Shown here piece by piece: positions 12,355-50,683 of a stretch of DNA of 64,000 nucleotides (position 1 is the first letter of the stretch; every line of letters begins with the position of its first letter). The translations under genes were made by a program, and so were the position numbers. The notes below the pieces were generated by a model that was not told the DNA's origin, made no database searches, and worked only from the letters and a program-made list of their open reading frames with translations. The DNA lies in IMG/VR virus record IMGVR_UViG_3300009130_000002; one strand, written 5' to 3'. Source of the DNA: a virus.

Positions 12355-13602
12355 ATGACAATTGAAATCAAAGACGCAAACCAATTTGAATATCTCTGGA
12401 AGAATAACGGAAATCTTCAGGATGGACAGCGTGTAAAATTAAATGATGCTCTCTCTGTTCCCAATGCGCCAATGTTAATGCCTAAGGTTATTAGCAATAT
12501 CGTAAAGGAAGCTGCAGAGCCTCTCTTGGTGGGTACAAGCCTACTACAAAGAATTAACTATTCTTATGGACAAACTATTACTTTCCCAGCTGTTGGTGCC
12601 ATGGTTGCTGCCGACATTGCGGAAGGTCAAGAATATCCAGAGCGTAGCCTCCAGATGGGTGGAGCTACCGTTACAGCTAGCATCGGTAAGTCCGGTGTTG
12701 CCGTTAAGGTAACTGATGAAATGATTCGTTATTCTCAGTTTGATGTAATTGGTATGCATCTCCGCGCAGCTGGTCGTGCTTTAGCTCGACACAAAGAAGT
12801 TAAGATTTTTAACTTCATTCGTAGCATGGGTGTAGCTTGTTTTGACAATGTTAACCCAACTCAATCTCTTAAGGGTGTTACCACTGGCCGTGATATGGCT
12901 GGTGCAGGTAATGGCTCAGTAACCATGGATGATATCTTTGATGCTTATGCTCAGGTTATCACTCAGGGCTTTACTCCAAACACTCTTTTGATGCACCCAT
13001 TAACTTGGACGATGTTCGTTAAGGATGCTACCTTGCGTTCGTTTGTCTTAGGTAACAATGGCGGGAACTGGTTTGCTGGCTGGAACGGCAATCCTGCAGA
13101 AAGAGCACCATGGGACAATAGTTCTCAGGGTGGCCTCGGTATGTCTGCGGGTCAAGATATCACTCCCGGTGGCAATGCTGCAGGTGCTGCTGCTAGTCCC
13201 CTAAGCGATTATCCCCAAACGCTTAGCACTTCACCTCAGATGCCAGGGTATATGAATATTCCTTTTAGGATTATCGTTAGCCCATTTGTACCTTATGATC
13301 CTAGACGTAAGCTTACAGACATTTATATGTTTGATTCGTCTGAACTTGGTGTTCTCATCGTTGATGAAGAAGTAACCACTGAGGAATTCGATGATCCTCG
13401 CGTAGATATTCGCAAGATTAAGCTTCGTGAACGATATGGTATCGGTATTCTTAATGAAGGCAAGGCTATTGCTACACTGAAAAATGTGCATGTTGTACCT
13501 AATGAAATGGTACTTCCTGCTCAAGCGACAATTAATATTGGCGCACATGATGCTGCTGCAATCAGAGATTTCTCTGATGATCCAACATCTTCAGTACTTT
13601 AA
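12355..13602 (+). CDS. Major capsid protein (HK97 fold)
   Basis: Strong RBS AAGGAGG and followed by a terminator. HK97-like pattern (AADIAEGQEYPE, KSGVAVKVTDEMIRYSQFDVI, ALARHKEVKIF, PNTLLMHP, IIVSPFVP, KIKLRERYGIGIL). Confidence 0.88.
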   Translation: MTIEIKDANQFEYLWKNNGNLQDGQRVKLNDALSVPNAPMLMPKVISNIVKEAAEPLLVGTSLLQRINYSYGQTITFPAVGAMVAADIAEGQEYPERSLQMGGATVTASIGKSGVAVKVTDEMIRYSQFDVIGMHLRAAGRALARHKEVKIFNFIRSMGVACFDNVNPTQSLKGVTTGRDMAGAGNGSVTMDDIFDAYAQVITQGFTPNTLLMHPLTWTMFVKDATLRSFVLGNNGGNWFAGWNGNPAERAPWDNSSQGGLGMSAGQDITPGGNAAGAAASPLSDYPQTLSTSPQMPGYMNIPFRIIVSPFVPYDPRRKLTDIYMFDSSELGVLIVDEEVTTEEFDDPRVDIRKIKLRERYGIGILNEGKAIATLKNVHVVPNEMVLPAQATINIGAHDAAAIRDFSDDPTSSVL

Positions 13603-17330: not shown

Positions 17331-19301
17331 ATGGCGATTTTTGATAATCTTCCAGGCGTATTCCTGGAAATGATTGACGGTAACTTAACCGTCTTCCCAG
17401 ACCCTGCATCCCCTCTGTTCTTTATCTTAGGAACCTCGGAAAAAGAACCTACGAATGCAGATGGAAGCCCTTTGAGCTATCCATATACAGTAACTCAAGG
17501 AGCAGCAGAAGTGCTCGAACTATTCGGAACAGGCACTCTGTACAATACATTTGCTGAAGCTCAGGCAGGTGGAGCTAATAACTTCATTGTCTGGAGAACT
17601 GGCAATACTAATGACCCTTTATATAAACAATATGAGGGATTATTCAAAGCATATGCATATATGTATGACCAAAATATGGATGCGGTAATTCCGGGTGGAG
17701 TCTATCTTGACTCTCGAAATGTAATGGACGGCTTCCAGCAATTTAACTATGGAACAACTCCCCCAAGCCCAACTAAAGCAGATATTCTTGGCAGAGTTTA
17801 CGCCAAAGAAGTAGATGGAGAATGGCAATTTGCTTGGTGGTGGCCAGAAAATGTAGTAAATCTATCAGCATCAACTAATGGAATTGCTCAGTCACCGCTA
17901 ACAACAAATCAACTTCAGCTAACAAATGCCAATGTGGATAGCTATAATTCTTCTACTGGACTTATAAGCCTCGTTTTAACTGGTGGTGAGAGTGACAACT
18001 TCACCCCTGCCTTCATTGCAAACTCACTTAGCCTTGAAGAAGCAGCAGTAACTGCAGATTTCGTTACTATGACATCAAAAGCAACTGTTGGCAACTGCAC
18101 ATCCAAAGGAGACTACTGGCTGCATGAAGCAACAGGTGCAGTATTTATTCAAGTTGGAAGCGGTTTCGCTGGAGAATCAGAAGCACTGGATGCCATGTCA
18201 TCGCAAGTTGATGGTAGTGGAGATGCAATTAGACCTCTCTTGTCTTATGATGTTCCAAATAACCCTTCATTACTTGATCCTAATGATCTTATTGGCTCTG
18301 AGAGTTTGGCTGAAAGTGACTTCCACGAAGTCAACTTTGCTTATCAGCTTGCTGAATTCTGCCATAGAGGAAGTGAGGTTGTAGATACTCGCTTTGGCTT
18401 TATTGGAGTAAGAGATATTGCAGGCACCGGTAGCTCTGGTGACTGGGGCTCGGTCTTGCATGAGTCCAGATGGGTAGGAACAGCTGCATCGTTAGGTGCT
18501 GATGGGGCAGTTAATGATAATGGATCTGGCCTTCTCGGGAATAAATTTCTTTCAGGAAGAATTCAGGGCACCCTAATCAACCAGGGAGATTTCCCTGCTT
18601 TCCAGAACACAGCAGACTTTAATGGAGAAGGTGGATTCTTTCTATGTGATGACACGGCTTCAGCTCAAAGAGCTTGGCTAGATGGAGTTGCAAAAACAGA
18701 TTCTAATGGAAATAAAGTTGATCTAGGTAAATACATCAGCATCATGGGTTCATGGATCAATGTATTTAATAATGGAACTAGCTATAACTGCAGTGCAGCT
18801 GCAGCTTATGGTGGCATGGTAATGGGCGGCTCACTACCCATTGCAAGTGCTCCAACAAACAAGGCTTTTACTGTAGGCACCTTATTGGGAACTGTCAGCA
18901 CTCCAAAGCTTGATGCTCTGGCAGGTAAAAGAGTCGTTGCGGTTCAAAGAAAAGCAACAGGCAATGTTATTACAGACGGTGTAACGGCTGCAACTTCTGC
19001 ATCTGACTATAGAAGATTATCTACTATGAGACAGGTTGAAGCAGCAGTGGATGGCATCCGTACAGTGGGAGAACCCTTCCTTGGAGAGGGAATGACTGGA
19101 GTTCATATTGCAGGACTTGAAACAGGAATCGGAGACTTTTTGAGAACAATGGTAAGAGAGGGCCAAATCAATGATTATAGATTTCAGCTCGTTGTTACTC
19201 CTCAAATGAAGATTCTGGGTCAAGCTATCGTGCAGTTGACTTTAGTGCCAGCCTTTGAGCTGAGATCAATTACAGTAAGTGTCGGTCTTTCGGCAACTTA
19301 A
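17331..19301 (+). CDS. Contractile tail sheath protein
   Basis: N-terminal LPGVFLEMID and sheath C-terminal domain (SAPTNK, SDYRRLSTMRQVEAAVDGIR..GEPFLGEG, LVPAFELRSITVSV). RBS AGGAGG; upstream of the tube gene. Confidence 0.88.
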   Translation: MAIFDNLPGVFLEMIDGNLTVFPDPASPLFFILGTSEKEPTNADGSPLSYPYTVTQGAAEVLELFGTGTLYNTFAEAQAGGANNFIVWRTGNTNDPLYKQYEGLFKAYAYMYDQNMDAVIPGGVYLDSRNVMDGFQQFNYGTTPPSPTKADILGRVYAKEVDGEWQFAWWWPENVVNLSASTNGIAQSPLTTNQLQLTNANVDSYNSSTGLISLVLTGGESDNFTPAFIANSLSLEEAAVTADFVTMTSKATVGNCTSKGDYWLHEATGAVFIQVGSGFAGESEALDAMSSQVDGSGDAIRPLLSYDVPNNPSLLDPNDLIGSESLAESDFHEVNFAYQLAEFCHRGSEVVDTRFGFIGVRDIAGTGSSGDWGSVLHESRWVGTAASLGADGAVNDNGSGLLGNKFLSGRIQGTLINQGDFPAFQNTADFNGEGGFFLCDDTASAQRAWLDGVAKTDSNGNKVDLGKYISIMGSWINVFNNGTSYNCSAAAAYGGMVMGGSLPIASAPTNKAFTVGTLLGTVSTPKLDALAGKRVVAVQRKATGNVITDGVTAATSASDYRRLSTMRQVEAAVDGIRTVGEPFLGEGMTGVHIAGLETGIGDFLRTMVREGQINDYRFQLVVTPQMKILGQAIVQLTLVPAFELRSITVSVGLSAT

Positions 19302-19313
19302 TAGGAGGTTATT

Positions 19314-19964
19314 ATGAGTAAATTAAGAGGAGTCGGAGGAGAGTTGAAAAGTTTTAACAGCTTTTCCGGCGTAGATATTAAAGCAGTCATGGGGAGTACT
19401 GTTATCGGCGAATTACAGGCAATCTCCTATTCAATCAGTAGAGAGAAGGCACCGCTTTATACCATGGGGTCTGCAGATCCAAGAGCATACTCCCGTGGTA
19501 AAAGAGGTATTGCTGGTACACTTATCTTTTTGATGTTTGATAGGCATTCATTCTTGGGGCACTTTGGTGTTTTTAACAGCACATTGGACAGCGAGTATAA
19601 GCCTTTCTTGGACAAGGATGAAGCAAGGTTTGCTGAAAATTTATTGGGGCCAAGTACCACACTTCAAAGTATTGAAGGTACAGTTTCGGATGCTGGGCCT
19701 GATAGCAACGAAGTAAATGATACCAAGATTTCTGATCTTGGACAAAAACAATCTGCATTCTTTTCAGATCAAGTTCTTCCATTTGATGTTACCCTGGCAG
19801 CAGCAAATGAATATGGAGCTTTGGCAGTTATGAGAATTTATGGCTGTGAAATCTTAAATGAAGGCTATGGGGTTTCTATTGACGATATCGTATCTGAACA
19901 ACAGATGAGTTATATTGCAAGAAGTCTTTCTCCGTGGACAGCAGTTAAGAGACCATCAAAATAA
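19314..19964 (+). CDS. Tail tube protein
   Basis: FNSFSGVDI, GELQAISYSISREKAP, RGKRGIAGTLIF, DQVLPFDVTL.AANEYG, YGVSIDD. Directly after the sheath gene with a strong RBS. Confidence 0.82.
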   Translation: MSKLRGVGGELKSFNSFSGVDIKAVMGSTVIGELQAISYSISREKAPLYTMGSADPRAYSRGKRGIAGTLIFLMFDRHSFLGHFGVFNSTLDSEYKPFLDKDEARFAENLLGPSTTLQSIEGTVSDAGPDSNEVNDTKISDLGQKQSAFFSDQVLPFDVTLAAANEYGALAVMRIYGCEILNEGYGVSIDDIVSEQQMSYIARSLSPWTAVKRPSK

Positions 19965-20015: not shown

Positions 20016-20843
20016 ATGGCTAAATTAGAAAAGAAAAGATTAGATTATTCTGCATCAACATATAGTGGTGCGGACATATCTGTTATTGCAACACTTAACT
20101 TTCCGAAGGGATGGAAGCCAAAAAAAGAAGAACTATCTCTTTTGGACTCTCTTTCTAGTGTTGGAGGGGAAGTAGTAAAAGCCCTCAAGAGGATAGCCGA
20201 TCCCACAGATGGAGATAAAAGAACCTGGCAATTTGGACCTAAACAACCAAAAAGCAATGCTCTCGTAGGGGATATAGTTTTAAAAGATGGTTGGGTAGAG
20301 GGATTCGCTTTTGAGCTGGGAACAGTGCAAACGATATCCTATCAAACTCATAGACCAAAAGCCCCAGTAAGAGCACTCGGAAGATCATATGCAAAGGGCT
20401 ACACTAGAGGCCCTAGGACAATTGCAGGCTCTATGATTTTCACTGTAATTAATGAACATCCATTAAGAAGGCTTTGTAAGCAAATGGAGGATTCTTTGCA
20501 AAGTATCGATAGCAAAGATGTGTTTTCTTCAATTCTTTCTGATCAATTACTTCCCCTAGATCTAACTTTGTTGTTTGCCAACGAGTATGGAAGTGTATCA
20601 AGGATGGCACTTTATGGTGTCGAATTCCTGAATAATGGCCAAACCTTAAGTATTGAGGATTTACTCCTAGAAGAGGTTACGCAATTTGTTGCCTTGGATA
20701 TCGATCCAATGACAGACATTACAGATACAGCCAAAAAGGGTGGTGGAACTAAACGATCACTTTCTGCATCTGAAGTTTTCAAAGCCGACTTCCCTTCCTA
20801 TAATGAATGGTTAGAAAGAGTTGGGATGAGAAGGAAGTTTTAA
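20016..20843 (+). CDS. Tail tube-like paralogue (tube initiator/baseplate-proximal)
   Basis: Shares motifs with the tube: YSGADI, QTISYQTHRPKAP, RGPRTIAGSMIF, SDQLLPLDLTLLFANEYG, LSIED. Confidence 0.75.
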   Translation: MAKLEKKRLDYSASTYSGADISVIATLNFPKGWKPKKEELSLLDSLSSVGGEVVKALKRIADPTDGDKRTWQFGPKQPKSNALVGDIVLKDGWVEGFAFELGTVQTISYQTHRPKAPVRALGRSYAKGYTRGPRTIAGSMIFTVINEHPLRRLCKQMEDSLQSIDSKDVFSSILSDQLLPLDLTLLFANEYGSVSRMALYGVEFLNNGQTLSIEDLLLEEVTQFVALDIDPMTDITDTAKKGGGTKRSLSASEVFKADFPSYNEWLERVGMRRKF

Positions 20844-21575
20844 ATGTCAATAGAACGTTTTGAATATAATCTTGATTATTATAGTGGTGCCCAAGCTGCT
20901 GTCTATTTTGATGACATCATGATAGATGAAGTAACAACAATGCAGTGGACTGTTCAGCAATCAAAGGTTCCTATTTATGGATATGCATCTCAAACCTTTG
21001 ATGAGATGGCAAAGGGAACGATTATTGTTCAAGGCAGCTTTAGCATTAACTTTGTAGAAGCTGGTTATCTTTGGGCTGTTTTAAATAGGAATTACAAGAA
21101 AAGAAGAGCAATACAGTTTGATGGGGGAACAATTGGATATCCTACGATTATGGATGAAACTGAAATTAAAAGAAGAAACCAACAGGCAGTAAACAGGTAT
21201 ATTGATGCTAATTTAAATCCACGAGATGAGCCCGTAGGTTCATCAGATCAAGCGATGATAGAAGCATATAATAGCTTAAGAAATAACCCTCATGGACTGC
21301 ACGAGTATTCAAGATTAATTAACGACCATATCTGGGGTTCAGAAACATCGAGAACAATTGGTGGGATTCCAGAAGACTTTAGTGGACAAAGAAGAACAGA
21401 TAGGAAAGAGTTAAATGGATTTGATATTTATCTCGCTTTCCAACATACAGATTCAGATGTTCATACCATTACAAAAATAGAGGATGTTCATCTAGTTGGC
21501 AAAGCTCAGACTGTTGTCATTGATGAAAATCCAGTGCAAGAAGTCTATTCTTTTTATGCAAAAAATGTTATATAG
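20844..21575 (+). CDS. Second tail tube-like paralogue
   Basis: YYSGAQ, QWTVQQSKVPIYGY, KGTIIVQGSFSINF, QEVYSFYAK; more divergent tube-fold pattern. Confidence 0.65.
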   Translation: MSIERFEYNLDYYSGAQAAVYFDDIMIDEVTTMQWTVQQSKVPIYGYASQTFDEMAKGTIIVQGSFSINFVEAGYLWAVLNRNYKKRRAIQFDGGTIGYPTIMDETEIKRRNQQAVNRYIDANLNPRDEPVGSSDQAMIEAYNSLRNNPHGLHEYSRLINDHIWGSETSRTIGGIPEDFSGQRRTDRKELNGFDIYLAFQHTDSDVHTITKIEDVHLVGKAQTVVIDENPVQEVYSFYAKNVI

Positions 21576-21604: not shown

Positions 21605-22039
21605 ATGACAGAAGAGCAAACCGTTGAAAATACACAAACAACAGAGGCAGGAAATCCAGGTGTGGATGAAGGGACAAAAACCCTTGCTGCAATTTTGGCT
21701 GAATTCCCTCAGTCTCCAACAGAGGTGAGAATTGAACAATGGAAACAAAACCATGGGGAGGTTTATTGTTCTGGATTCTCTGAAGAAGAGCTAGTTGTTT
21801 GGAGACCTATCAATAGAAGGGAGTTTGTTCAGCTTCAAGAGACTGTTCAGGGTGCAAGTGTTAGTACCTTAGAATTAGAGGAAGAGGTTGTAAACAAATG
21901 CCTGTTATGGACTTCCCCAAAAGCCAGAATCGCCTTAGAGCATAAGGCAGGCAGTCTAACTACACTCAATGAGCAGATTATGCAAAATTCAAACTTCATT
22001 AATCCACAAATGGCCTCTGCGTTGGTAGTGAAGCTGTAG
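21605..22039 (+). CDS. Tail assembly chaperone (G-like)
   Basis: Between the tube genes and the TMP-like gene; VVWRPINRREF, EEEVVNKCLLW, KAGSLTTL; RBS AAAGGAG. Confidence 0.7.
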   Translation: MTEEQTVENTQTTEAGNPGVDEGTKTLAAILAEFPQSPTEVRIEQWKQNHGEVYCSGFSEEELVVWRPINRREFVQLQETVQGASVSTLELEEEVVNKCLLWTSPKARIALEHKAGSLTTLNEQIMQNSNFINPQMASALVVKL

Positions 22040-22046
22040 GTTCGCA

Positions 22047-22952
22047 ATGTTGGATCTCCCATCTTTAAGAAGACAATACGGGGCTGTATTTGTTACAACA
22101 CTTGAAAATGGGAATGTTATTCCCTGGAAGCAATTAACTATAGGAGAATACCTAGAGTACTCCTCCCTGTTAGAGGGGGGAGTTTACGCTAGGGCAACGA
22201 TAGAAGATGAGGTTTTCAGAAAATGTGTTCTTGACGAGCTAACCATTGTTAATCTTCCTGCGCTAAAAGCTGGAACTGTAACAACGGTTGTTCAGGATAT
22301 CTTAAGAAATTCAGGCCCAAACACTATTGACGAGCTAAACCTCGCATTGGGACTTTATAGAAATGTAGCTAATCAAGCTGTACACCAAACAGCCTCTCTG
22401 ATTACACAAGCATTTCCCGCTTATACTTTAGAGCAGGTATATGAAATGAATTTCAATGACTTCATGATGAGAGTGGCCCAGGCAGAAGCTAAGCTTTTGC
22501 AGTTAGGAATACTTGAGCAACCAATTAATTTTCATGATCCAACTGTTCAAGTTGAACAAGCTGCTGAAGAAGCACCAAAGATGGATGCAATGGAAATGTA
22601 CAGAAAGTATCAAGAGCAGCAAGAAGAAGTACAACCACAACAAACTATAATTAAAGATACTCAGATGTTTTCTAATTCTGGATTATCGGATGAAGAATCA
22701 GGATATTCAACACAAGATTTAGATGAAGAGACACAAGTTATCTTTAAAGATTATATTGACCAGTTAAATGCTGGTGAAAAGTTAAGGATTAAAACCCCGG
22801 AGGAAAGATTAGCAGAAGCTAAAATTCGTGAACAGGAAGGCAAACAAATTGTTAGCAAACAATTAAATGCAGAACAAGTTCATAATCAAGCTTTAGAAAA
22901 ACAATATGCTGAAATACTAAAGAGGGCGTCTGCTAAGAAAAAAAATAGATAG
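22047..22952 (+). CDS. Second tail assembly chaperone (GT-like), N-terminal paralogue of the previous gene
   Basis: IPWKQLTIGEY, EDEVFRKCVL and KAGTVTTV align with the 21605 ORF; extra acidic/charged C-terminus. Confidence 0.65.
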   Translation: MLDLPSLRRQYGAVFVTTLENGNVIPWKQLTIGEYLEYSSLLEGGVYARATIEDEVFRKCVLDELTIVNLPALKAGTVTTVVQDILRNSGPNTIDELNLALGLYRNVANQAVHQTASLITQAFPAYTLEQVYEMNFNDFMMRVAQAEAKLLQLGILEQPINFHDPTVQVEQAAEEAPKMDAMEMYRKYQEQQEEVQPQQTIIKDTQMFSNSGLSDEESGYSTQDLDEETQVIFKDYIDQLNAGEKLRIKTPEERLAEAKIREQEGKQIVSKQLNAEQVHNQALEKQYAEILKRASAKKKNR

Positions 22953-26861: not shown

Positions 26862-29800
26862 ATGGCTGATAGTAATGACGGCTTTAAAATTGTAGATAGT
26901 GCCTTCAGAAGAAAACCGGGAAGGAGTATTGTTGATCAACGTAACACTGGGTTTCGTGATTTAGGAACAGTTACAAATTCTGAAAGACAGCTTCAAAAAC
27001 AAATCGAATATTTGCAAAAGCAAATTCAAGTACAAAGAGGCCAAGGCGCTGCAGAGGGGGCAACTCTAGATTCTACCAGAAGTAGGGCAAAAGGGGCTAA
27101 GCAGTTATTTACAGCAGGCTTTAAGCAGGCCTGGACTAGTTTTTCTGAAGAGGATCAAGGTAGATTAAGAAGTATACTTGCAGGCGGTCCAAGTGCCTCA
27201 GTTCAACAGCAGTCTCGAATAAATCGAATACTTGATGCAGAAATGCGTCCTGGTCATAATTGGATACTTGGAAGAGATGGGAGCATTCCTGCCTCTGGTA
27301 TTGCAGAGATTCTAGAAAGAACTCTTTCTGGTGGTCCAGGAGGAATAGGTAATAACTCAAATTTACTCTTAAAATTAATTAGCGCACAATCATCAGCGAT
27401 GGCTCCCCTTGCTAAGGAAACAATAGCCAATGAGGGAAAGGTTCCACAGCTCCTAACAGTTCGAGAAGATTTAGAAAGGATGGGCTTTGATTCTTACATG
27501 AAACATATTCCGGTAGAGCAAGTTGCAACAACAAAGCAAAATGTAACGCTCCCTTCAAATATGTCTTCTCAGCAAAGAGCTGTATACAAGCAATTTGGTT
27601 ATTCCCCAGAAGAAATTCACGAAAGAAATAAAAGGTTTATTCCATCAATGGCAGAAGGTGCCATGAGAGAACTTACGAGATTAAAAGATAACGGAGATTT
27701 TCAGGTATCCTTTACAGAAATCCAACACGAAACAGATTCAAGAATCTCTACCCTTAGAGGCGAGATTCAGTACCAAGATACAACCTTGCAGTTTAGGCTC
27801 CCAAAACTAACAAGAAGCACAACCAAACTAGGTCACGATAAGTGGATTGGCTTTAGTGGGGACACTCAGTCAGTTAGAAGAATGTACCTGCCTTATGAGG
27901 TTATAGAAACACCAGGGGATTTCGCAGGTTCTACCTTTATGACAGCTGATGAGTTTTATTTGAAAACCATTAATGAGGAAATTATGCCCGCTCTAAGAGA
28001 AGGGAAAATGACGGGAGAGCAGGCAAGGCAGGCATTTAAGGATGCAAGACAAATACTTACAGATGCAGAGCTACCACTAGGAAGCTCATTTAATATAAGC
28101 CCAGCTCAACAAAACTTCGAGGCAGTTAGAAGTGGAGCATCTATTGTTGTTCAAAGAACTCCAGGTTCAAGAGTTGAATCCACAGGAGTCAAGAGAGCCT
28201 ATGAAAGATTGAATGCAACAGGTATCGCAAGCTTTATTGAGGCAAATGCAATAGGCCGTCCAGATAGAGTTTATACTGCAGATACTGGAAAGCTAGGACA
28301 AGGTGTTGTTTCTCGAATTGATTTAGCTGGCATGTCTGTAACTCCAGATGAGCTAGTTGAACATGCAGGATTGCATCAAGGAGTAAGAAAACCAACCCCA
28401 GCAAAAGAAGCTATACTTGAAGCTTATGACGAATATTCTGGTTCAAGAATAACAGATCTAGAACAACGACAAGATTGGATTCGTCAATTTTTTGTTGATG
28501 GCAACTATATGCATGGGGCCGAAATGGATATTCTAAAAAGGCAACAAACACAGTTTTCTGATAACCTCGCACAGAAAGCTGAAAGGGTTGCACATATCCA
28601 TAGGATGGCATCAGCTCCTGGCTTGTGGAACAATGTTACTGCTCAGGACGTAGAAACCTTAGTCTCAATTGCTTCAAATAAAGGAATCAGTATTGGTGAG
28701 TTAAAGGGAATGAGTGGCTCTATGGGGCTAACTCATGCTCCTAGGCACCTAGCAAAAAGAATTTTGGATGCTCCCTTTAGAGTGTCTTCTGCTGATGCAA
28801 GAAGGATGGCATTAACTGCAAGCACTCCAATGGAAAACAGGCTTAGTGGATTTGCGAAGCAACTGGGAACTGTTAGGCATGGCATGGGATCTGTAGGTTT
28901 TCTAGCATCAAGAAAAGAACAAAACGAAGTTCTTAATTTAATTAAGGGCATTAAAAAGGGAGATACTGACTGGAGAAATGTTGCAGCAGATACTGCACAT
29001 TTTGATTATGCTTTTCGCATTCTACAAAAAGAAGGAACGAATAACCAGCACGCTACAAGATTTTTAGAAGAATACCAATCACTATATAAAACTCCAAAAG
29101 GAGTTGCGGGTCAAGAAGACTTAAATCAGAAAGTCATGAAACTCTTAAGTGAACACGAGGGGATGGTTAATGTTGGAGCTTACTATATAGATGAATCAAA
29201 AGTTGCAGATGTAAGTAAAGTTCCATTTGGATCTGGTGGTGCAATACACGCTCCCTCAATGAAAAAATTAACAACTGTAGAAGTTGCTGATCAGATGAAG
29301 CTTTCCACTGTCCAAGCTGGTTTATTTAAAACGCAGGGGGATGAACTTATTTTTGATACAGATGTTTTCAAAACAAAGAAAGAAATCTTCTTAGGTTATG
29401 ATGCAGGGGGAGACGCCAGGGTTGTTACAAAAGATATGGTGGACTCAGGAGAGTTTCGCTTTATGCATGCTCGGTTAATTGGCAATAGAGATAACCCATT
29501 AATTCAGCTTGATTTCATTAGGAAGCTTACTCCAGAAGAATTGGTTAAGCTCCACGGGGATATAAAAACAGGTGCCCCAACTTTAGATAGCAATAAGGCA
29601 TATAGAAATGTAACTGATGAGATTGCCTCTACAGTTCAAAGTGCTAGAGGAAGAAGAGTTTTAAAAGATCGACGAATGCAATCAGATTTAATGACATTTT
29701 CTGATTCATTTAAAAAGGGGAAAAAGAGACAGCAGCATAACAGACAAATGCTAACAGCTATGGCTCAACATTCCCTGTCTCATTTGCAAGCTTGGCAAGG

Positions 29801-32729
29801 ATCAGGATTGGCAGCTAACAAAGGAGATTATATGAATAAGATCCTCACAGAAACAAACAGAGTTACCACCCAGATGTATGACTTCAATCAGGAAGTTTAT
29901 GGTAGAGCTGCTTTTTCTGGAGGAGATGAAGCTGCAAGAAGAAGATTTGACTTGAGAACTGGAGCAGCAACATTTGATCCTAGTATAGGTGATACGCAGC
30001 CCCGATGGAAAGCAACAGGAACATGGGCCCACAGAAAAGGAACCCAGGCTCTCATGGAGCACTTTTTAACTACGGGCATTAATCTTGGCTTGCAAGCTGG
30101 ACCAAGCCTTCCTGGAGGAATGGCTGCAGGGCTAGCAGATAGATCCCTACGCTACCTAGATGCTGATTACTTTTCGGAAGTCTTTGGTTTAGTTGGAACT
30201 CATTTTGGTGATGAAGAAGCCGAAGCAATGATGACCGAAGTTCTTGGAAGAAGAATAACAAAGGGCGGCCATACGGATACCATTGCAAATCAATTAACTA
30301 AAATGGGCTTAGAAGTTCAAGAATTTATGGATGCAAGCAAAACAGGAGTATCTGCTGGTTTGATTAGGCTTCAGTACGGAGATGCAATGTCTCAACAGGG
30401 AGCAGGCAAGATGGCAACCTTTGAGCCTCGCTTTTTGAATATTCTACAGAATCCTGCATTTGGAGATCACTCTCCAGAAGTTATCGAAGATATTCTTAAA
30501 AGAATGAGATGGTTTGATTCCTCATATCAAGGTCAAGGAAAATATGGGGTTCATCAAGAAACAGAAAAAATGCTAGCTTCTATGATAGGATTGAAAGCTC
30601 CGGTTACTGGAGAATCAGAAATATATAGACCTGATCTTAAGGTTACTGACACTTCTGAGATCATGGAGGATGTTAAAAGACTTGGAAAGATTGCAGAACG
30701 TGAAGGAAAAGAATTCTTCTTGCAAATGGGAGCTGATGCCCCAGTCTATTTACCTCCAGAGTCTATGCAGGGGATGGCTAGTGAAACGAGAGAAACTTTA
30801 ACTGGTCAGAAGATAACGACACAAGCTCAGTTAAAGCAACACATTCGAGGCTATGTTACTCAGCATATGGCTGCTTCAAGTGATGCAGAGAGAGATCAGG
30901 CAGCAAAGGCCCTGAAGATTGCAATTGGAAAAGAATGGGGAGAAGCTGGAGACGGAATGGGTGCTTGGCTTCGAAACAGAATTCCCGGAAGTCAGTTTCT
31001 TACAGCCAGCCGAGATCCTGTAACGCATGCAGGAACTGAGCGATTAGGAAATTTATTTGAAAATGTAATTTCAGTTAAAACTGCAGACAGAATGATGGAG
31101 CAGATGAGAGAAACAGGTCTCTATGCAGATAACGATATCGACTTGATGATGGAAAAACTTCTTAAGGGAGAAGCTATTTCAGGAATCCTTTTTCGTCACC
31201 CGGGTATTGGCCCTTACTCCATACAGAAGACTTCATTTCGGATTGCAGGGGAAATGCAGACAACAACGGAGATGGTTGATAACAAGAAAACAAGAGTAAA
31301 GAAATTTGTTCCTAACTACAGAGTTAAAGATTCAACCATCTATATGCCCGAAAACAGGATAGATCTTGACTTAGATATCTTAGATGAATCATACGAAAAT
31401 CTGGAACAAGGGGTTCGTCACCGCGTCTCTTCCAAAGTCATGCTTGGTCCAATGGTGGGTATGGCAGGTGATTATGATTTCGATATCACTGGTGCCATGT
31501 TCTTAGATCCTAAATTAGAAAAGAAGATTGGTCGTGAATTAGCAGGTGATTCAGATTATTTAAAAGGTTATGTTGAGCATCAGATAAGATTTCAATTACT
31601 CAAAGAGCAGTCTGGTCACATGGGTGATGACACAATTGATGCAATGTCAAAAAATGCAGACCTTCTTACGGACAGCGTTAAAGCACATATCCTTCAAGCA
31701 AGAAAGCTAGGTATTCAACAAGAAAGTATTGGAACAATCTCATCTCTGATCACAAGAACAAAGATGTCAGCTTTATCTCATCTGAAAGATGAAGAAATAG
31801 GCTCGATGATGACCTTGCTGGAATGGATTGAACAAAAGCCAATTGGATTTAAGCACGTTAAGTCACCAGATGAATTGCAAGCAAAGCTCACTTCTCTTAT
31901 TGCAGGATTTGAATCTGGGGATAGAGAGCAACTTGCCCGTGGTATCGGAGCATTCCTAGAGACGGAAGGAAGTCTCTTGCAAAACCAGAAGATAACCTTA
32001 ACTGATGAAAGCCGAGCTGCCTTAAAGGAAAAGACAGGTTTAGACATCAGCAAAGAGCTGCCAAAAATAGACATAGAGAGAACAATAAACTTGATGTCTT
32101 ACACTATACAAAGAGGTCATAAAGAAGGCTTGTTTAAGGAGATAAATGCTCAGAAAGGCAAAGGCGGGGCTAACAATGTAGAGAGAGAAGTTAGGAGGCT
32201 CATTCAAGAGGAAGCTGCGGGGCCTTCTTCAGGTGCTGCAAGGTTTGCTGAAAATGTAGACCAGGTTGCTTCTAACGTAATGAACGCAGCAGGAAAGGGA
32301 GGAATTCTTCACCATAGAGGAGTTCAAGCTCTTGCAGTGATTGGCGGAATCTCTGCTCTATCTGGAATGAATGCACAACCAAAAGAAATGGTTGGTCCTG
32401 GAAAGCAGTTTAATGCGAATGTTCAGATGAATATGAACAATAGTCGGAAAGCACATAAGAGAATGACTCCTCAAGATGTTAAACCTTCTAGGGCTCCAAT
32501 CGGAAATCCTACAGGTCCAAATATGCTTAGTCAAAGAAGAGCTATGATTGCGAGTCACCCTCCTCCAACAAATCAGTATCTAGTTCGTGCCAGAGCAAGC
32601 CATCCTGATGATATCTCTATCGTCTCTCAACAAATGAAAAGATACTCTATGGCTGGTGGTTCAGTCAATGTGAACTCAGGTTCTAGATCAATACAAAACC
32701 CATATGGAAATATGAATACTTCTTATTAA
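26862..32729 (+). CDS. Putative single-chain two-barrel (DPBB) RNA polymerase-like virion protein
   Basis: Ordered beta'-like motifs: LRNRIPGS (R at 30978), ILFRHPGIGPYSIQ (R at 31194), STIYMP, GMAGDYDFD (31470-31484). Candidate beta-like VKLHGDIK at 29544-29567. Embedded in the tail module between the TMP-like gene and the hub. Confidence 0.65.
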   Translation: MADSNDGFKIVDSAFRRKPGRSIVDQRNTGFRDLGTVTNSERQLQKQIEYLQKQIQVQRGQGAAEGATLDSTRSRAKGAKQLFTAGFKQAWTSFSEEDQGRLRSILAGGPSASVQQQSRINRILDAEMRPGHNWILGRDGSIPASGIAEILERTLSGGPGGIGNNSNLLLKLISAQSSAMAPLAKETIANEGKVPQLLTVREDLERMGFDSYMKHIPVEQVATTKQNVTLPSNMSSQQRAVYKQFGYSPEEIHERNKRFIPSMAEGAMRELTRLKDNGDFQVSFTEIQHETDSRISTLRGEIQYQDTTLQFRLPKLTRSTTKLGHDKWIGFSGDTQSVRRMYLPYEVIETPGDFAGSTFMTADEFYLKTINEEIMPALREGKMTGEQARQAFKDARQILTDAELPLGSSFNISPAQQNFEAVRSGASIVVQRTPGSRVESTGVKRAYERLNATGIASFIEANAIGRPDRVYTADTGKLGQGVVSRIDLAGMSVTPDELVEHAGLHQGVRKPTPAKEAILEAYDEYSGSRITDLEQRQDWIRQFFVDGNYMHGAEMDILKRQQTQFSDNLAQKAERVAHIHRMASAPGLWNNVTAQDVETLVSIASNKGISIGELKGMSGSMGLTHAPRHLAKRILDAPFRVSSADARRMALTASTPMENRLSGFAKQLGTVRHGMGSVGFLASRKEQNEVLNLIKGIKKGDTDWRNVAADTAHFDYAFRILQKEGTNNQHATRFLEEYQSLYKTPKGVAGQEDLNQKVMKLLSEHEGMVNVGAYYIDESKVADVSKVPFGSGGAIHAPSMKKLTTVEVADQMKLSTVQAGLFKTQGDELIFDTDVFKTKKEIFLGYDAGGDARVVTKDMVDSGEFRFMHARLIGNRDNPLIQLDFIRKLTPEELVKLHGDIKTGAPTLDSNKAYRNVTDEIASTVQSARGRRVLKDRRMQSDLMTFSDSFKKGKKRQQHNRQMLTAMAQHSLSHLQAWQGSGLAANKGDYMNKILTETNRVTTQMYDFNQEVYGRAAFSGGDEAARRRFDLRTGAATFDPSIGDTQPRWKATGTWAHRKGTQALMEHFLTTGINLGLQAGPSLPGGMAAGLADRSLRYLDADYFSEVFGLVGTHFGDEEAEAMMTEVLGRRITKGGHTDTIANQLTKMGLEVQEFMDASKTGVSAGLIRLQYGDAMSQQGAGKMATFEPRFLNILQNPAFGDHSPEVIEDILKRMRWFDSSYQGQGKYGVHQETEKMLASMIGLKAPVTGESEIYRPDLKVTDTSEIMEDVKRLGKIAEREGKEFFLQMGADAPVYLPPESMQGMASETRETLTGQKITTQAQLKQHIRGYVTQHMAASSDAERDQAAKALKIAIGKEWGEAGDGMGAWLRNRIPGSQFLTASRDPVTHAGTERLGNLFENVISVKTADRMMEQMRETGLYADNDIDLMMEKLLKGEAISGILFRHPGIGPYSIQKTSFRIAGEMQTTTEMVDNKKTRVKKFVPNYRVKDSTIYMPENRIDLDLDILDESYENLEQGVRHRVSSKVMLGPMVGMAGDYDFDITGAMFLDPKLEKKIGRELAGDSDYLKGYVEHQIRFQLLKEQSGHMGDDTIDAMSKNADLLTDSVKAHILQARKLGIQQESIGTISSLITRTKMSALSHLKDEEIGSMMTLLEWIEQKPIGFKHVKSPDELQAKLTSLIAGFESGDREQLARGIGAFLETEGSLLQNQKITLTDESRAALKEKTGLDISKELPKIDIERTINLMSYTIQRGHKEGLFKEINAQKGKGGANNVEREVRRLIQEEAAGPSSGAARFAENVDQVASNVMNAAGKGGILHHRGVQALAVIGGISALSGMNAQPKEMVGPGKQFNANVQMNMNNSRKAHKRMTPQDVKPSRAPIGNPTGPNMLSQRRAMIASHPPPTNQYLVRARASHPDDISIVSQQMKRYSMAGGSVNVNSGSRSIQNPYGNMNTSY

Positions 32730-39611: not shown

Positions 39612-39962
39612 ATGAGTGAATCAGATAAAAGAAACATAAGAGTTTGGAGAGTTAATTTGGATTCTACAGCTGGTTTCGTTATCAGTCCAAATCGAGTTAT
39701 GGCACTAAGTGATAAGAAAACCTTTCTTTCTATTAGACCTGGGCATATGACTCTTCGATCCAATAGAATTGATTTACTGACACAGCCAGAAAATATCACC
39801 AAGGGGGTCATGTTTAGAGAGAATATAGGTTTTGCACAGCTAATTCCTTCCACTATCGCTAGCCCTATCCCTATGATGACAATAAATATTCCAGGAGCAG
39901 AGCTTATGGATTACCTGGTTGATTCAGGAATATTTACAATTCAAAGTTTACAGGCATTATAA
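39612..39962 (+). CDS. Small baseplate/spike-associated protein
   Basis: 116 aa with short alternating beta segments, between the OB-like gene and the gp25-like gene. Confidence 0.5.
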   Translation: MSESDKRNIRVWRVNLDSTAGFVISPNRVMALSDKKTFLSIRPGHMTLRSNRIDLLTQPENITKGVMFRENIGFAQLIPSTIASPIPMMTINIPGAELMDYLVDSGIFTIQSLQAL

Positions 39963-40417
39963 TGAAAAACTATGATGGAATAGATTTAACAATGACTCCA
40001 GATGGAGACCTTGATATTGGATCAAATGGTGATATTAATAATACAGAGAAGGACCAGATAGTTTCTTTGCAACAAAAGATTATTTCCTTATTGAAAAGCG
40101 AGACTGGTGATTGGATTGATCACCCTACGCTAGCAGTAAATTTAAGTAGTTTTGTAGGTGAACCAAACACCAGAGAAAATGCAAAGAGGATGGAAACCCA
40201 AATTAAAAATGCTCTTATCGGTGCAAGAATAGTAGAGAAGCAAGACTTAAAGGTAAGAGTGAATGCAGTTGGCCAAACAAGAGTAGCCATAGAAATTGTT
40301 GTGAGCGCTAGACCCACTGTATTCAATAGCATCTCAAGGGAATTAGAAATGACTTTCTTTTTTAATTCTAGTGATGGAAGGGTAAACTGGAGTCCAAGAA
40401 GCTTTGGAGGAATATAA
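39962..40417 (+). CDS. Baseplate wedge gp25/GpW-like protein
   Basis: DLTMTPDGDL, LQQKIISLLKSETGDWIDHPTLAVNLSSFVGEPN; immediately before the J-like gene. Confidence 0.75.
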   Translation: MKNYDGIDLTMTPDGDLDIGSNGDINNTEKDQIVSLQQKIISLLKSETGDWIDHPTLAVNLSSFVGEPNTRENAKRMETQIKNALIGARIVEKQDLKVRVNAVGQTRVAIEIVVSARPTVFNSISRELEMTFFFNSSDGRVNWSPRSFGGI

Positions 40418-41629
40418 ATGCCTTTATTTGGAGAATCAAAACAAGAAATTTTTTCTGATGTTGTCACAGACCTATTAAGTAATAGCAATATTACTGAGGC
40501 CAGTCCAGGCTCAACGGCAAGAGCGATCATTGAAGCAGTGACAAATAAGATGGGGGACATGTGGACTAAGTTTGATTTAAACATGGCCCATGCATTTATT
40601 GATGGTGCTGAAGGTGCATTCCTTGATCGTTTTGGAGAGATGTTCGGGCTTAGCAGGAACCTTGAAGCCCCCGCTAGATTTGGAACAGAGGATAAAATCC
40701 TTCGCTTTTTTGTAGTCGATGCGCTAGCTGACAGCATAACTATCCCATCAGGAACAATAGTTAGCACAGAGCCCAATGCATCAGGGACTACTTATATAAC
40801 AACTGCAACAGTGACAATCCCAATCGGTAGTGCATCAATGGAAGCTTATGCTCCTGCGGTATCAAGAAAAACAGGAGCCAGAGGAAACACAGCTCAAGGC
40901 ACTTTAAATTTTCACAATATAGATGACGGTCGTTTAAAAGTAACAAATGAAGCAGACATTACCACTGGTAGAAGAATGGAGAGTGATGAAAATTTTAGAT
41001 TTAGAATTGCTAATCAAGTCTTAAGTTCTGAAACAGGAAATTACACAGCAATCAGGATGGGCGCACTAGCTGTTCCTGGAGTTGCAGATGTTGTTATTAT
41101 GCCATTTTGGAGGGGAGTCGGAACATTCGATATACTGGTTAAAGCAACCACCCCAAAGGTTAGTGCTAGCTTACTTAGCAATGTTAGACGAGCACTTTAT
41201 TTCGTTGTATCTCAAGGTGTTAGCTTTAATGTTAGAAAGCCAAAAGAAACTGGTGTCTCAATGCAGGTTACTATTAAGCTGATGGATCCGATGGATGATG
41301 TTACAAAGCAGGAGTTAAGAAATCGAATTAGGCAAAGACTATTTGATTATATTAACAATTTAGATATTGGTCAGCCACTTAGCTTTGGGGAAATCACCCA
41401 ATTGATAATGTCAACAAGTGACAATATCAATTATCTAGGGTCCGATGGTAGACCTATTGATAGTGTTACAATCTATAAGGAAACAGATCTTTATACCACT
41501 CGTATCCCAGAGACTTTATTTTTTGCAGGAGATAGCCCCGTAAACTACACACCTGCTACAGATGAAAAGTTATTAATTGAATTAGAATATATCGCAACAG
41601 AAAATCCAATTGTTGTGATCATTAAATAG
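40418..41629 (+). CDS. Baseplate J-like (gp6-type) wedge protein
   Basis: AEGAFLDRFGEMFGLSR, IPSGTIVST, ESDENFRFRI, ALAVPGVADV, RGVGTFDILV. Confidence 0.88.
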   Translation: MPLFGESKQEIFSDVVTDLLSNSNITEASPGSTARAIIEAVTNKMGDMWTKFDLNMAHAFIDGAEGAFLDRFGEMFGLSRNLEAPARFGTEDKILRFFVVDALADSITIPSGTIVSTEPNASGTTYITTATVTIPIGSASMEAYAPAVSRKTGARGNTAQGTLNFHNIDDGRLKVTNEADITTGRRMESDENFRFRIANQVLSSETGNYTAIRMGALAVPGVADVVIMPFWRGVGTFDILVKATTPKVSASLLSNVRRALYFVVSQGVSFNVRKPKETGVSMQVTIKLMDPMDDVTKQELRNRIRQRLFDYINNLDIGQPLSFGEITQLIMSTSDNINYLGSDGRPIDSVTIYKETDLYTTRIPETLFFAGDSPVNYTPATDEKLLIELEYIATENPIVVIIK

Positions 41630-44288: not shown

Positions 44289-46448
44289 GTGAATTTGGAT
44301 CTCTTAATAAATATAGGATCGAGCCCAATTTCTACACAGACAGGGCATCGCTCTAAGTATATAGAAACTCCCCACCCAGGAACCAACAGTAAGATTATGG
44401 GTTGGCAGTGGGGAAAGTTTATGTGGCCAGTATATTCGGACTTGTCTGAATTCTCTTATGTTCCAACGATCTATGATGCTGAATTAAATTTAGATAAACT
44501 ATATTATCAATCAGGTTTTGGATATGAAGACGATATTAAATTGAATAATATCGTTAGAAGAGAAGTCGAACACCTAAAGAAATGGGCCCCAGTAATTAAC
44601 TCTGGAACCTACTATGTTCATGATAGAGAATGGTACCTTTTCAGTGACCAGTATATTACAGAAGCATTAGATGTTACTGCAGGCCACCATGTTTTAGGCA
44701 CCAGAAACAAGGCCTTAACCCCTATCTTTATTAGGAACTATAAGAGGAGCTTACAAACATCTGAGCTTCTTATAAATAAAGAACTAAGATATGCAATTAG
44801 GCTAGATGCAGACGGAACAATGCTACCTCCACAAGAGGGAGAGTTCATAGTTGATACAACTACAGAGCCAACAGAAACACGAATTCAATTATTTGCTAAC
44901 GATGAGACAATCAGTAGTGAAACTCAAGCATTTCAAATTACAGAAGATACTACGAGTTTACAACTTTCAGCATTTCCAGTATCAACAACTAATGCCGATG
45001 CCAACAATTGGAGTGTAGATCTTGACCTTGGAGTTCTCACAAGATTAAACCCTGCAACTGATGGCCTGAATGGAACCTCGGTAACAATAGTTTACACCCC
45101 AAGTTATGTCGTTATATATGAGCCAGAGTTTTCTTCTGGAGAAGTTACTGCAGAAACGGCAAATATCAACCCCCTGCATGTCGGAACAAATAGGGGTTTT
45201 ATTCAAATCACAACAGAGATCTTAGATCCCTTCAGTATAGAATTAGAAACAGATCTCCCAATAACAAATCCATCGAACTTTCCTTCTTCAGAATATAATT
45301 TGGATTTAGGAAACAACGTTGCTCGCTTAACAGCAACAGTTAGAAATCAAGCAGGTAGCTTACTCGAAGGAATTAGGGTTTTCTTCGATTGGGAGCATGC
45401 TCCTCCTGGAGGCTATGGAGATTATACAGATGATCCTTCGTCCATTACCAATTACAATGGAGAAGCTTACATGTCTTATAGTGCCCCCTCAACAATAAAT
45501 GATATTGGTTCCTACGTTTTAAAAGATGATATTACAGTAGCTAACGGAGGGTCTACCCTTGATATTCCAAATATTGCACAAACAAGTTTAGATAAAATCT
45601 ATATTTATGCAGTCAGTTCTGATGATACATTCATGGGGCTGGATTTTGTAAGCTTACAAAACTATTGGACAGCTGGAACCGGCAACTACTTCACAGATGA
45701 ATTGATCACAGAGGCAGGCATAAATACAAAAGACTATGAAGAAAGTTATCGTCAATATCAGGGGCAATATAGTTTACATGATTTTCATTATCCATATATC
45801 CGACCTTTTGAATTAGTTACAGATCATTCAGGTGAAACCAGAGGTCGAAAGACAATGGTCTTTGTTGAGCGAAATATTGACGGTTCTTATTTGAATCCAA
45901 ATACAGGTGTTAGATCAGATGCAAGCAATGCGATCTGGGAGCCATTAAAGCCTTTCTCTATTACAGAGGGCCCAACAACTACGAGTATTAAATATAGTAT
46001 TGATTTAAAAAACACCAATAACGACCCGCTTGATAATGACAGGATTTTTCAATATTTTGTAGTAGCAAACAGAACTATCAAGATAAAGGCTTGGGCAAAT
46101 AATGCAGCAGGCCAAAGGATTTTTTCTAATGAAATTTTGTTAAATATAATGTTACCTGATAGTCTAAATGGTGTATACTATGCAGAAGCATTGAACAGCT
46201 TGCCTTCTGATTTTATTGATGGTTTACTCACTAGCAAGTCAGAGGTGCCAGATCATATAGATGATCCATTTAAAGAAGAGTGGGATGACAACAATCCCAA
46301 TGCTACAACAGATGTAACTTCTGTTTCGATTACTCCAGATGCTAATCCCGCAGTGATTCCATTAGGATTTAGAATTGCAAACCCCCAAGGGATTACAGTA
46401 GCAAGCTTATTAGATAGAATTACATTCCTAACAAAAGAGAATGATTAA
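44289..46448 (+). CDS. Baseplate/structural protein with Big_1 (invasin-type) Ig-like domain
   Basis: GTG start. ARLTATVRNQAGSLLEGIRVFF...ITNYNGEAYMSYSAP matches the Big_1 pattern. Confidence 0.6.
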   Translation: MNLDLLINIGSSPISTQTGHRSKYIETPHPGTNSKIMGWQWGKFMWPVYSDLSEFSYVPTIYDAELNLDKLYYQSGFGYEDDIKLNNIVRREVEHLKKWAPVINSGTYYVHDREWYLFSDQYITEALDVTAGHHVLGTRNKALTPIFIRNYKRSLQTSELLINKELRYAIRLDADGTMLPPQEGEFIVDTTTEPTETRIQLFANDETISSETQAFQITEDTTSLQLSAFPVSTTNADANNWSVDLDLGVLTRLNPATDGLNGTSVTIVYTPSYVVIYEPEFSSGEVTAETANINPLHVGTNRGFIQITTEILDPFSIELETDLPITNPSNFPSSEYNLDLGNNVARLTATVRNQAGSLLEGIRVFFDWEHAPPGGYGDYTDDPSSITNYNGEAYMSYSAPSTINDIGSYVLKDDITVANGGSTLDIPNIAQTSLDKIYIYAVSSDDTFMGLDFVSLQNYWTAGTGNYFTDELITEAGINTKDYEESYRQYQGQYSLHDFHYPYIRPFELVTDHSGETRGRKTMVFVERNIDGSYLNPNTGVRSDASNAIWEPLKPFSITEGPTTTSIKYSIDLKNTNNDPLDNDRIFQYFVVANRTIKIKAWANNAAGQRIFSNEILLNIMLPDSLNGVYYAEALNSLPSDFIDGLLTSKSEVPDHIDDPFKEEWDDNNPNATTDVTSVSITPDANPAVIPLGFRIANPQGITVASLLDRITFLTKEND

Positions 46449-46468
46449 AGTTTAAAGAGGTAACAGCA

Positions 46469-50671: not shown

Positions 50672-50683
50672 GGATAAATCAAC

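Follow-up and report, generated by a model that had tools for sequence, protein, structure and literature searches.

Virion RNA polymerases (RNAPs) let phages start transcription without the host enzyme and beyond its reach. Two-barrel virion RNAPs are known from crAss-like podophages, from phiKZ-like jumbo phages, in which the enzyme is multisubunit, and from one group of siphophages, in which it is fused to the tape measure protein (TMP). Here we describe a candidate from a contractile-tailed phage, the protein P0001, encoded in a stretch of 64,000 nucleotides (the window) from the IMG/VR virus record IMGVR_UViG_3300009130_000002. According to the list of open reading frames (ORFs) and their translations, the P0001 ORF (26862–32729, + strand) encodes 1955 amino acids (aa), and its ATG lies 1 base past the stop codon of the upstream 1302-aa gene. 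The original prediction, made from the letters of the window, saw in this protein a two-barrel RNAP in a single chain, with its gene inside a contractile-tail module, and this core claim is supported by conservation, by two AlphaFold2 (AF2) models built without templates, by HHalign and by synteny. We hold it to be reasonably probable that residues ~767–1790 form a complete polymerase of this kind, carried by a virion protein that occupies the tape-measure slot and is injected through the tail to transcribe pre-early genes.

Among the described systems, gp96 of Thermus phage P23-45 (PMC10770324) is like P0001 in having a single-chain two-barrel core in a tape-measure-slot protein of a long-tailed phage, with delivery through the tail and pre-early transcription presumed. 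It is a siphovirus protein, whereas P0001 comes from a contractile-tailed phage, and its RNAP is N-terminal in a chain of 5002 aa that also contains metallopeptidase and membrane domains, while the P0001 core covers residues 767–1790 of 1955. Unlike gp96, which has a metallopeptidase domain of its own, the P0001 phage has an M23 peptidase in the next gene, that of the baseplate hub. There is no sequence similarity between the two proteins, and their likeness is structural only (Z 8.3–8.4). The second system, gp66 of the crAss-like phage phi14:2, is a virion protein whose gene adjoins other virion-protein genes. Like P0001, it is a giant late virion-type protein of ~2000 aa with both barrels in one chain, the beta-like before the beta'-like, and with the short motifs RxP...S...Q and G(S/D)DxDxD. 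On the other hand, it is a podovirus protein and its genomic neighbourhood differs from that of P0001. Alignment of the P0001 family with gp66 by HHalign was not significant (E 0.55, probability 0.1%), and the RxP and DxDxD segments (DFDID in gp66) are nonetheless paired in it. YonO of SPbeta is likewise a phage single-chain two-barrel enzyme but, unlike P0001, it is a non-virion protein of ~800 aa. Finally, the catalytic half of P0001 is matched best in structure by RDR2/QDE-1 and the cellular largest subunits (Rpb1, beta', A190), with Z 10.8–11.9 over 242–372 residues. From these, P0001 differs in its lack of Pfam membership, its single chain, the connector of ~470 residues between the barrels, and its place in a viral tail module.

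The structural evidence comes from two AF2 models, of which the one for the C-terminal half was based on an alignment of 55 sequences, compared with known structures by Foldseek and by VIA, an independent all-against-all structure aligner. The model of residues 1000–1880 (predicted local distance difference test score, pLDDT, 75.9; predicted template modelling score, pTM, 0.70) contains a double-psi beta-barrel (DPBB) at residues 1376–1571 (30987–31574, +), with an aspartate triad in the loop preceding the last strand and a lineage-specific beta-hairpin insertion at ~1458–1520. In the Foldseek search against the PDB, the top 50 matches of this model were all largest RNAP subunits, including beta' of the AR9 non-virion RNAP (nvRNAP), Thermus and E. 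coli beta', the phiKZ nvRNAP and an archaeal largest subunit. VIA placed Pol I A190 first (Z 11.9 over 372 residues), followed by RDR2 (11.8), Pol IV (11.7), archaeal RpoA' (11.5), Pol II (11.4), QDE-1 (10.8), the enzymes of vaccinia virus and African swine fever virus (10.6), Mycobacterium tuberculosis (Mtb) beta' (10.3) and AR9 (10.0). Lower in the same comparison stand P74 gp62 (Z 8.5), which we take to be the counterpart of P23-45 gp64, and P23-45 gp96 itself (8.3–8.4 over 174–200 residues). Proteins that consist of the DPBB only (CDC48-N, a designed DPBB and VAT-N) were aligned by VIA to model residues 377–572 with Z 9–10 and a root-mean-square deviation (rmsd) of 2.0–2.6. P0001 thus has a predicted beta'-type DPBB bearing a DxDxD triad. 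The absence of phi14:2 gp66 and YonO from the structural matches listed for this half is not evidence of a difference.

The other model, of residues 760–1350 (pLDDT 81.7), has a beta-rich barrel domain at 769–907 (29166–29582) that holds the lysines K896 and K902, within a beta/Rpb2-like module spanning residues 767–1186 (29160–30419, +). Almost all of its top 50 Foldseek matches in the PDB were second-largest subunits (Pol I A135, vaccinia Rpo132, Mtb beta, Rpb2 and archaeal B chains). In a second look with VIA, 50 of 50 rows were of the beta/Rpb2 type (Z 7.8–8.6, with 212–252 residues aligned), and the module was aligned to the hybrid-binding/DPBB region, such as residues 735–1059 of Rpb2 or 518–1243 of E. 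coli beta. A second barrel module of the beta/Rpb2 type at residues 760–1186 is moderately supported by the modelling. The predicted core reads, from the N-terminus, as a beta/Rpb2-like module with K896/K902, a long connector, and a beta'/Rpb1-like module with the Mg-binding triad. Folded separately, the halves match one large subunit each, and do so in the order that a single-chain enzyme would have, for which chance is hard to invoke.

Conservation points in the same direction. An exhaustive HMMER search with residues 700–1850 as the query found homologues in 148 cluster representatives, 121 of them at E <= 1e-10, with lengths mostly of 1430–1600 aa and, where aligned, 20–30% identity to P0001. 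The motif xGDxDxD is aligned to D1537–D1541 in every homologue spanning the region. Across the alignment of 125 sequences, the columns average 14% identity, and full invariance is confined to E1657 and the three aspartates of D1537-Y-D1539-F-D1541 (31470–31484, +), the putative Mg-binding triad, which is present in 125/125. R1445 and P1447 of the R1445-H-P1447 segment (RHPxIGPYSxQ; 31194–31202, +), the counterpart of beta' NRAPTLH, are invariant in the set of 55 sequences. Further positions that are invariant or at least 90% conserved are R1371, G1376, S1377, K1664, H1665, E1188-P-R1190, R1214, P1298, K896 and K902. The last two, within KLHGDIK (29547–29567, +), reach at least 90% in an alignment of 52 sequences, where their consensus KxFGxxK resembles KxxGRHGNKG of beta, and they are candidates for the basic pair of the beta-like barrel. 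Conservation of the triad and of the other motifs at such low overall identity indicates selection on a catalytic centre, and not on a ruler or scaffold.

A register between the family and E. coli beta' was given by HHalign, which aligned the family profile with beta' residues 249–468 over 173 columns (E 2.3e-4, probability 44%). This alignment pairs the family segment GKGxG..R..GSRF with a 21-letter beta' segment, the VGIxxxxAxxMF helix with CGLPKKMALELF, RHPxIG with NRAPTLH, and LxPxVGxAGDxDxD with LHPLVCAAYNADFDGD, thereby placing the triad on beta' NADFDGD. Five segments named in the original prediction are all found in P0001, namely WLRNRIPGSQF at residue 1369, NVISVKTADRM at 1401, GILFRHPGIGPYSIQ at 1441, DSTIYMP at 1490 and MVGMAGDYDFDITGAMFL at 1531 (together residues 1369–1548), and D1537, D1539 and D1541 stand where they had been estimated to be. 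Most of the correspondences to beta' that were proposed for these segments reappear in the HHalign register; the register of the first motif was off by a few residues, and one pair proved wrong. DSTIYMP, taken for the counterpart of beta' GKAIQLHP, was rejected because it lies within the lineage-specific insertion, the actual counterpart being SKVMLGPMV (1524–1532). For the beta-like region, HHalign gave no significant match to E. coli beta and misaligned the region to the other barrel.

Database searches with the sequence itself returned little. P0001 has no Pfam match at E <= 0.1 and none in a PHROGs scan, and comparison with PDB sequences by phmmer and by profile hmmsearch produced noise only, the two profile matches (E > 0.1) being unrelated proteins and no RNAP. 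No tblastn match was found for P0001 and two family members in 50,697 GenBank phage records, and a word-based homologue search with P0001 gave a single match, a 79%-identical Tara Oceans protein. By fold and motifs, the P0001 family belongs to the two-barrel superfamily; by sequence, it belongs to none of the described families.

With its 1955 residues, P0001 is a full-length member of this metagenomic family (typically 1430–1600 aa), complete with insertions, as the profile of full-length members aligns to residues 248–524 and 767–1938. The first of these blocks is the family-conserved N-terminal region (27603–28433, +; profile positions 185–439, independent E-value 2e-15), and the gap between the two is a lineage-specific insertion, residues 525–766 (28434–29159, +), that is missing from the members of ~1450–1550 aa. 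A feature search of the ESM Atlas with the N-terminal 760 residues gave merely unnamed viral clusters at 0.76 and was uninformative. Between the two barrels, the connector or clamp-like region, residues 1187–1375 (30420–30986, +), with the invariant E1188-P-R1190, R1214 and R1371, is paired with the N-terminal clamp of beta' both by VIA (model residues 240–376) and by HHalign (beta' 249–340). The catalytic barrel is followed by a helical region, residues 1572–1790 (31575–32231, +), with long helices at 1601–1662 in the DSSP assignment of the model and the invariant E1657, K1664 and H1665 in EWxEQxPIxxKH. VIA alignments of the largest subunits continue as far as model residues 780–840, and bridge-helix or trigger-loop-like elements are possible there. 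The C-terminal tail, residues 1791–1955 (32232–32729, +), was modelled with low confidence (pLDDT ~30) and comprises a weakly hydrophobic Gly/Ala segment, a Pro-rich stretch and a signature of the last ~70 aa. A Kyte-Doolittle scan of P0001 showed no strong transmembrane helix, the C-terminal hydrophobic segment being sub-threshold.

In regard to the genomic setting, the contractile-tail context is borne out by PHROGs matches to a sheath (17331–19301) and to baseplate genes (39962–41629), and by sheath and hub the closest cultured relatives are Bacillus phage 0305phi8-36, Acinetobacter phage ME3 and a Moorella phage. In 0305phi8-36, the sheath gene is followed by those of the tube, a tube paralogue, gp142, two chaperonins, gp145 (found in virions by mass spectrometry, MS), gp146 and the gp147 hub. 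Its gp146, annotated as a hypothetical tape measure and the assigned TMP of this lineage, is also a virion protein by MS (PMC2147016). Hardies et al. 2007 took orf146 to be the tape measure on the strength of a correlation with tail length, and reported that it aligns with its presumptive BtI1/BwK1 counterparts over the last 60 residues only. In the window, P0001 lies in the gp146 slot, between P0002 (22952–26860, +; 1302 aa), a homologue of gp145 (phmmer E 7e-59, collinear) and of ME3_35, and P0003 (32736–39173, +; 2145 aa), the counterpart of the gp147 hub (E 2e-43). When the family profile was compared with the whole 0305phi8-36 genome, the sole match was to the last ~70 residues of gp146 (E 2.8e-6). 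The YonO-like RNAP gene that Iyer et al. 2021 reported elsewhere in that genome was not detected in this comparison. Given the slot and the C-terminal signature, P0001 would be the positional counterpart of the tape measure and not its neighbour, so that the earlier view, which set its gene apart from and next to that of the TMP, is probably wrong. In this respect, P0001, as the probable counterpart of the tape measure of its lineage, resembles the RNAP-TMP fusion of P23-45 more than a separate RNAP gene. The likeness to gp146 is limited to the slot and the last ~70 residues, as gp146 has no detectable polymerase core. Furthermore, gp146 was assigned as the TMP on indirect grounds, and the ruler could instead be the gp145-like neighbour; P0002 is an alternative or additional candidate for setting tail length. 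Giants of the P0002 type range from 1263 to 2111 aa among the relatives and have Gly-rich hydrophobic segments.

In IMG/VR, the family was found at 16 loci, on contigs up to 188.6 kb long, including one complete genome (188.6 kb). The contigs with homologues keep the same synteny, with the chaperones followed by the gp145-like giant, the P0001 homologue and the hub. In the genomes examined, the P0001 homologue is single-copy, and its neighbours are a gp145-like giant of 2111 aa and a hub of 1968 aa. Five related genomes lacked the beta'-type Pfam domain PF00623, which was detected in 14/14 control genomes, while a Pfam search of the relatives for T7-like RNAPs was uninformative, as its controls gave no match. 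No relatives were found in 185,579 GTDB species genomes, which therefore provide neither a clue to the host nor prophage copies.

Remote homologues among cultured phages were pointed to by structure. The best match to the catalytic model among predicted viral structures was an uncharacterised protein of phage ME3 (Foldseek E 2e-9, TM-score 0.41–0.44), very probably ME3_36, with which it was matched by organism name and size and not by accession. ME3_36 of Acinetobacter phage vB_AbaM_ME3 (KU935715, 33172–37983), annotated as a hypothetical protein of 1603 aa, has the gp145-like ME3_35 on one side and the hub ME3_37 on the other, which is the slot of P0001. It carries GGDHDQD (DHDQD at 1217), a REP...S..Q segment and KFFSVGSK near 630. 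Its lysine-pair region is aligned with that of the family by HHalign (E 1e-3), and its sequence is too divergent for HMMER. It was found through structure only. An RNAP in ME3 was reported neither in the ME3 genome paper nor in the comprehensive 2021 survey of jumbo phages. The third-best viral structural match to the catalytic model (E 6e-6) was a protein fragment of Microcystis phage MaMV-DC, which we assume is likely to correspond to gp080 of Microcystis phage Ma-LMM01 (NC_008562, 57700–68388, − strand), a hypothetical protein of 3562 aa encoded outside the tail module. This gp080 carries SNLGDFDGDTFSAIFF at residue 2537 (GDFDGD), which resembles the family motif aGDxDxDxxSAm. The published Ma-LMM01 transcriptome paper names no phage RNAP and places the early genes in one 5.8-kb block. 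We see an even chance that the marine clade, ME3 and possibly Ma-LMM01 gp080, the last at another genomic position, represent a third independently diverged family of ejection-coupled two-barrel RNAPs residing in the tape-measure-slot protein of contractile-tailed phages with large genomes.

In the model that we propose, P0001 would be made late, and the two-gene chaperone would assist its assembly into the phage tail, where the conserved C-terminal end of the protein would hold it to the hub. Contraction of the sheath would then expel it ahead of the DNA, after which it would fold in or at the cell membrane and transcribe pre-early genes independently of the host RNAP. It may also help to draw the incoming DNA in, as has been proposed for P23-45 gp96, and its role would be the same as that of gp96, of crAss gp66 and of the N4 virion RNAP. 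Packaging for use in the next infection is the simplest reason for a phage to make a polymerase only at the late stage, alongside its tail proteins. For this reason, and because the gp146 counterpart was found in virions by MS, P0001 is likewise expected to be packaged.

Several observations weigh against this model. Virion incorporation, ejection and polymerase activity are all inferred from context. The lumen of the tail tube has no room for a folded core of more than 100 kDa, which would need storage in an extended form or in the head. The sequence-level links to known RNAPs are weak, as the Pfam, PHROGs and PDB profile searches were null, the HHalign probability to beta' is 44%, and the comparison with gp66 was not significant. 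The beta-like module was graded as moderate because its Z-scores are middling (~8, rmsd ~6 Å) and because a wide search, which agrees with the others in returning beta/Rpb2 matches, mixes them with helical-bundle matches. The AF2 models cover residues 760–1350 and 1000–1880 separately, with none spanning both barrels, so a joint arrangement of the barrels, with K896/K902 at the active site, is a candidate feature. The gp146 protein of 0305phi8-36 is without DxDxD, which means that the tape-measure slot does not require an RNAP. Finally, no repeated promoter-like motif stood out upstream of the genes in the complete 188.6-kb relative, in a crude k-mer search from which absence is not implied.

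That a folded RNAP does not fit into the tube speaks for a delivery by another route. In podophages, the single-chain virion RNAPs known so far travel in the head, and P0001 might likewise be an active two-barrel RNAP that is carried there as an ejection protein of the crAss-like or N4-like kind, or else a non-virion enzyme that happens to be encoded in the tail operon. The weakness of its C-terminal hydrophobic segment would suit either version, yet we consider both versions unlikely, since the place between the tail chaperones and the hub is strictly kept in every relative examined, the C-terminal signature is common to P0001 and the lineage TMP, and a non-packaged polymerase made only with the late tail genes has no obvious use.

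Slightly less likely again is a two-barrel polymerase with another job, such as synthesis on single strands in the manner of QDE-1 or RDR enzymes, replication priming at entry, or DNA synthesis of the PolD type. The k-mer search gave no promoter motif, and RDR2 and QDE-1 score as high as the cellular RNAPs (Z 11.8 and 10.8, respectively). Against this, PolD was not among the structural matches listed, HHalign registers the barrel motifs to beta', and all characterised phage two-barrel enzymes are DNA-dependent RNAPs (PMC10770324).

It is also conceivable, if improbable, that the role of P0001 is essentially structural, that of a tape measure or ejection protein, and that its polymerase core is an ancestral remnant kept as an inactive scaffold. 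Its position in the TMP slot, its TMP C-terminal signature and the 0305phi8-36 counterpart without the catalytic motif would all agree with this, while an inactive scaffold would hardly explain why the Asp triad is invariant, and RxP, the lysine pair and other positions near-invariant, across more than 100 sequences at ~25% identity. Least probable of all is a modelling or search artefact in a protein of unrelated function, for which one could cite the modest Foldseek E-values (5e-4 to 5e-2), the TM-scores, low because the matches are partial, and the 44% HHalign probability, but the models were made without templates, the two of them match different large subunits in the correct N-to-C order with essentially every top match an RNAP, and the conserved motifs coincide with the catalytic barrel.

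The window as a whole carries the structural module of a myophage. It makes up nearly all of a 64.9-kb viral contig, all of whose genes lie on the + strand, and its source is an uncultured marine 0305phi8-36-like myophage. Base 1 of the contig corresponds to window position 61, the 60 bases before it lying outside the contig. The contig is without a terminal repeat and so is a genome fragment, probably about one third of a ~190-kb genome as judged from the complete relative. The head genes recognised with PHROGs encode a terminase (1428–3482, +), a portal (6498–8702, +) and a major capsid protein (12355–13602, +), and the sheath gene (+) is identified by phrog_16991 (E 2e-50) and by tblastn to the 0305phi8-36 sheath. 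Behind the sheath gene lie three tube-like paralogues (19314–19964, 20016–20843 and 20844–21575, +), all assigned to phrog_9206. The label of this group, 'major head protein', looks misleading for them, and from their position and the tube/tube paralogue pair of 0305phi8-36 they are more likely tail-tube paralogues. The subsequent pair of tail assembly chaperone genes (21605–22039 and 22047–22952, +) encodes proteins of 144 aa and 301 aa with one common domain, residues 47–129 of the first matching 8–89 of the second (BLASTP, E 4e-8). The arrangement is that described for gp143/gp144 of 0305phi8-36, in which two genes, with no frameshift, take the place of the usual G/GT tail chaperone.

Downstream of P0001, the hub protein P0003 was assigned from its M23 peptidase domain at residues 1233–1304 (PF01551, E 5e-15) and from phrog_20474. 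It combines a gp27-like/hub region, this peptidase and a strongly hydrophobic C-terminal segment at 2014–2032, and its homologues range from 1903 to 2329 aa. The baseplate genes mentioned above (+) are gp25-like and J-like, and the large genes at 44289–52801 (719, 1400 and 705 aa), which have no PHROG match, presumably encode fibre or baseplate-periphery proteins.

Literature searches returned work on P23-45, crAss, N4 and phiKZ, and no publication describing the P0001 family. Virion-delivered two-barrel RNAPs are thus already known, and what is new here is the sequence family, the contractile-tailed virus that harbours it, and the different fusion architecture. If the proposed reading is true, a deep branch of ~150 clusters at 50% identity, none of them annotated, would be added to the tree of two-barrel polymerases. 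It would also pose the physical question of how an enzyme of more than 100 kDa is stored in the tail tube and refolded after passage. Since a remote homologue exists in the cultured phage ME3, the question is directly testable. Myophages of this kind would begin infection with their own injected enzyme, coupling genome entry to transcription, and the idea of a tail-delivered polymerase would extend to myophages, as a recurrent strategy and not an oddity of Thermus phages.

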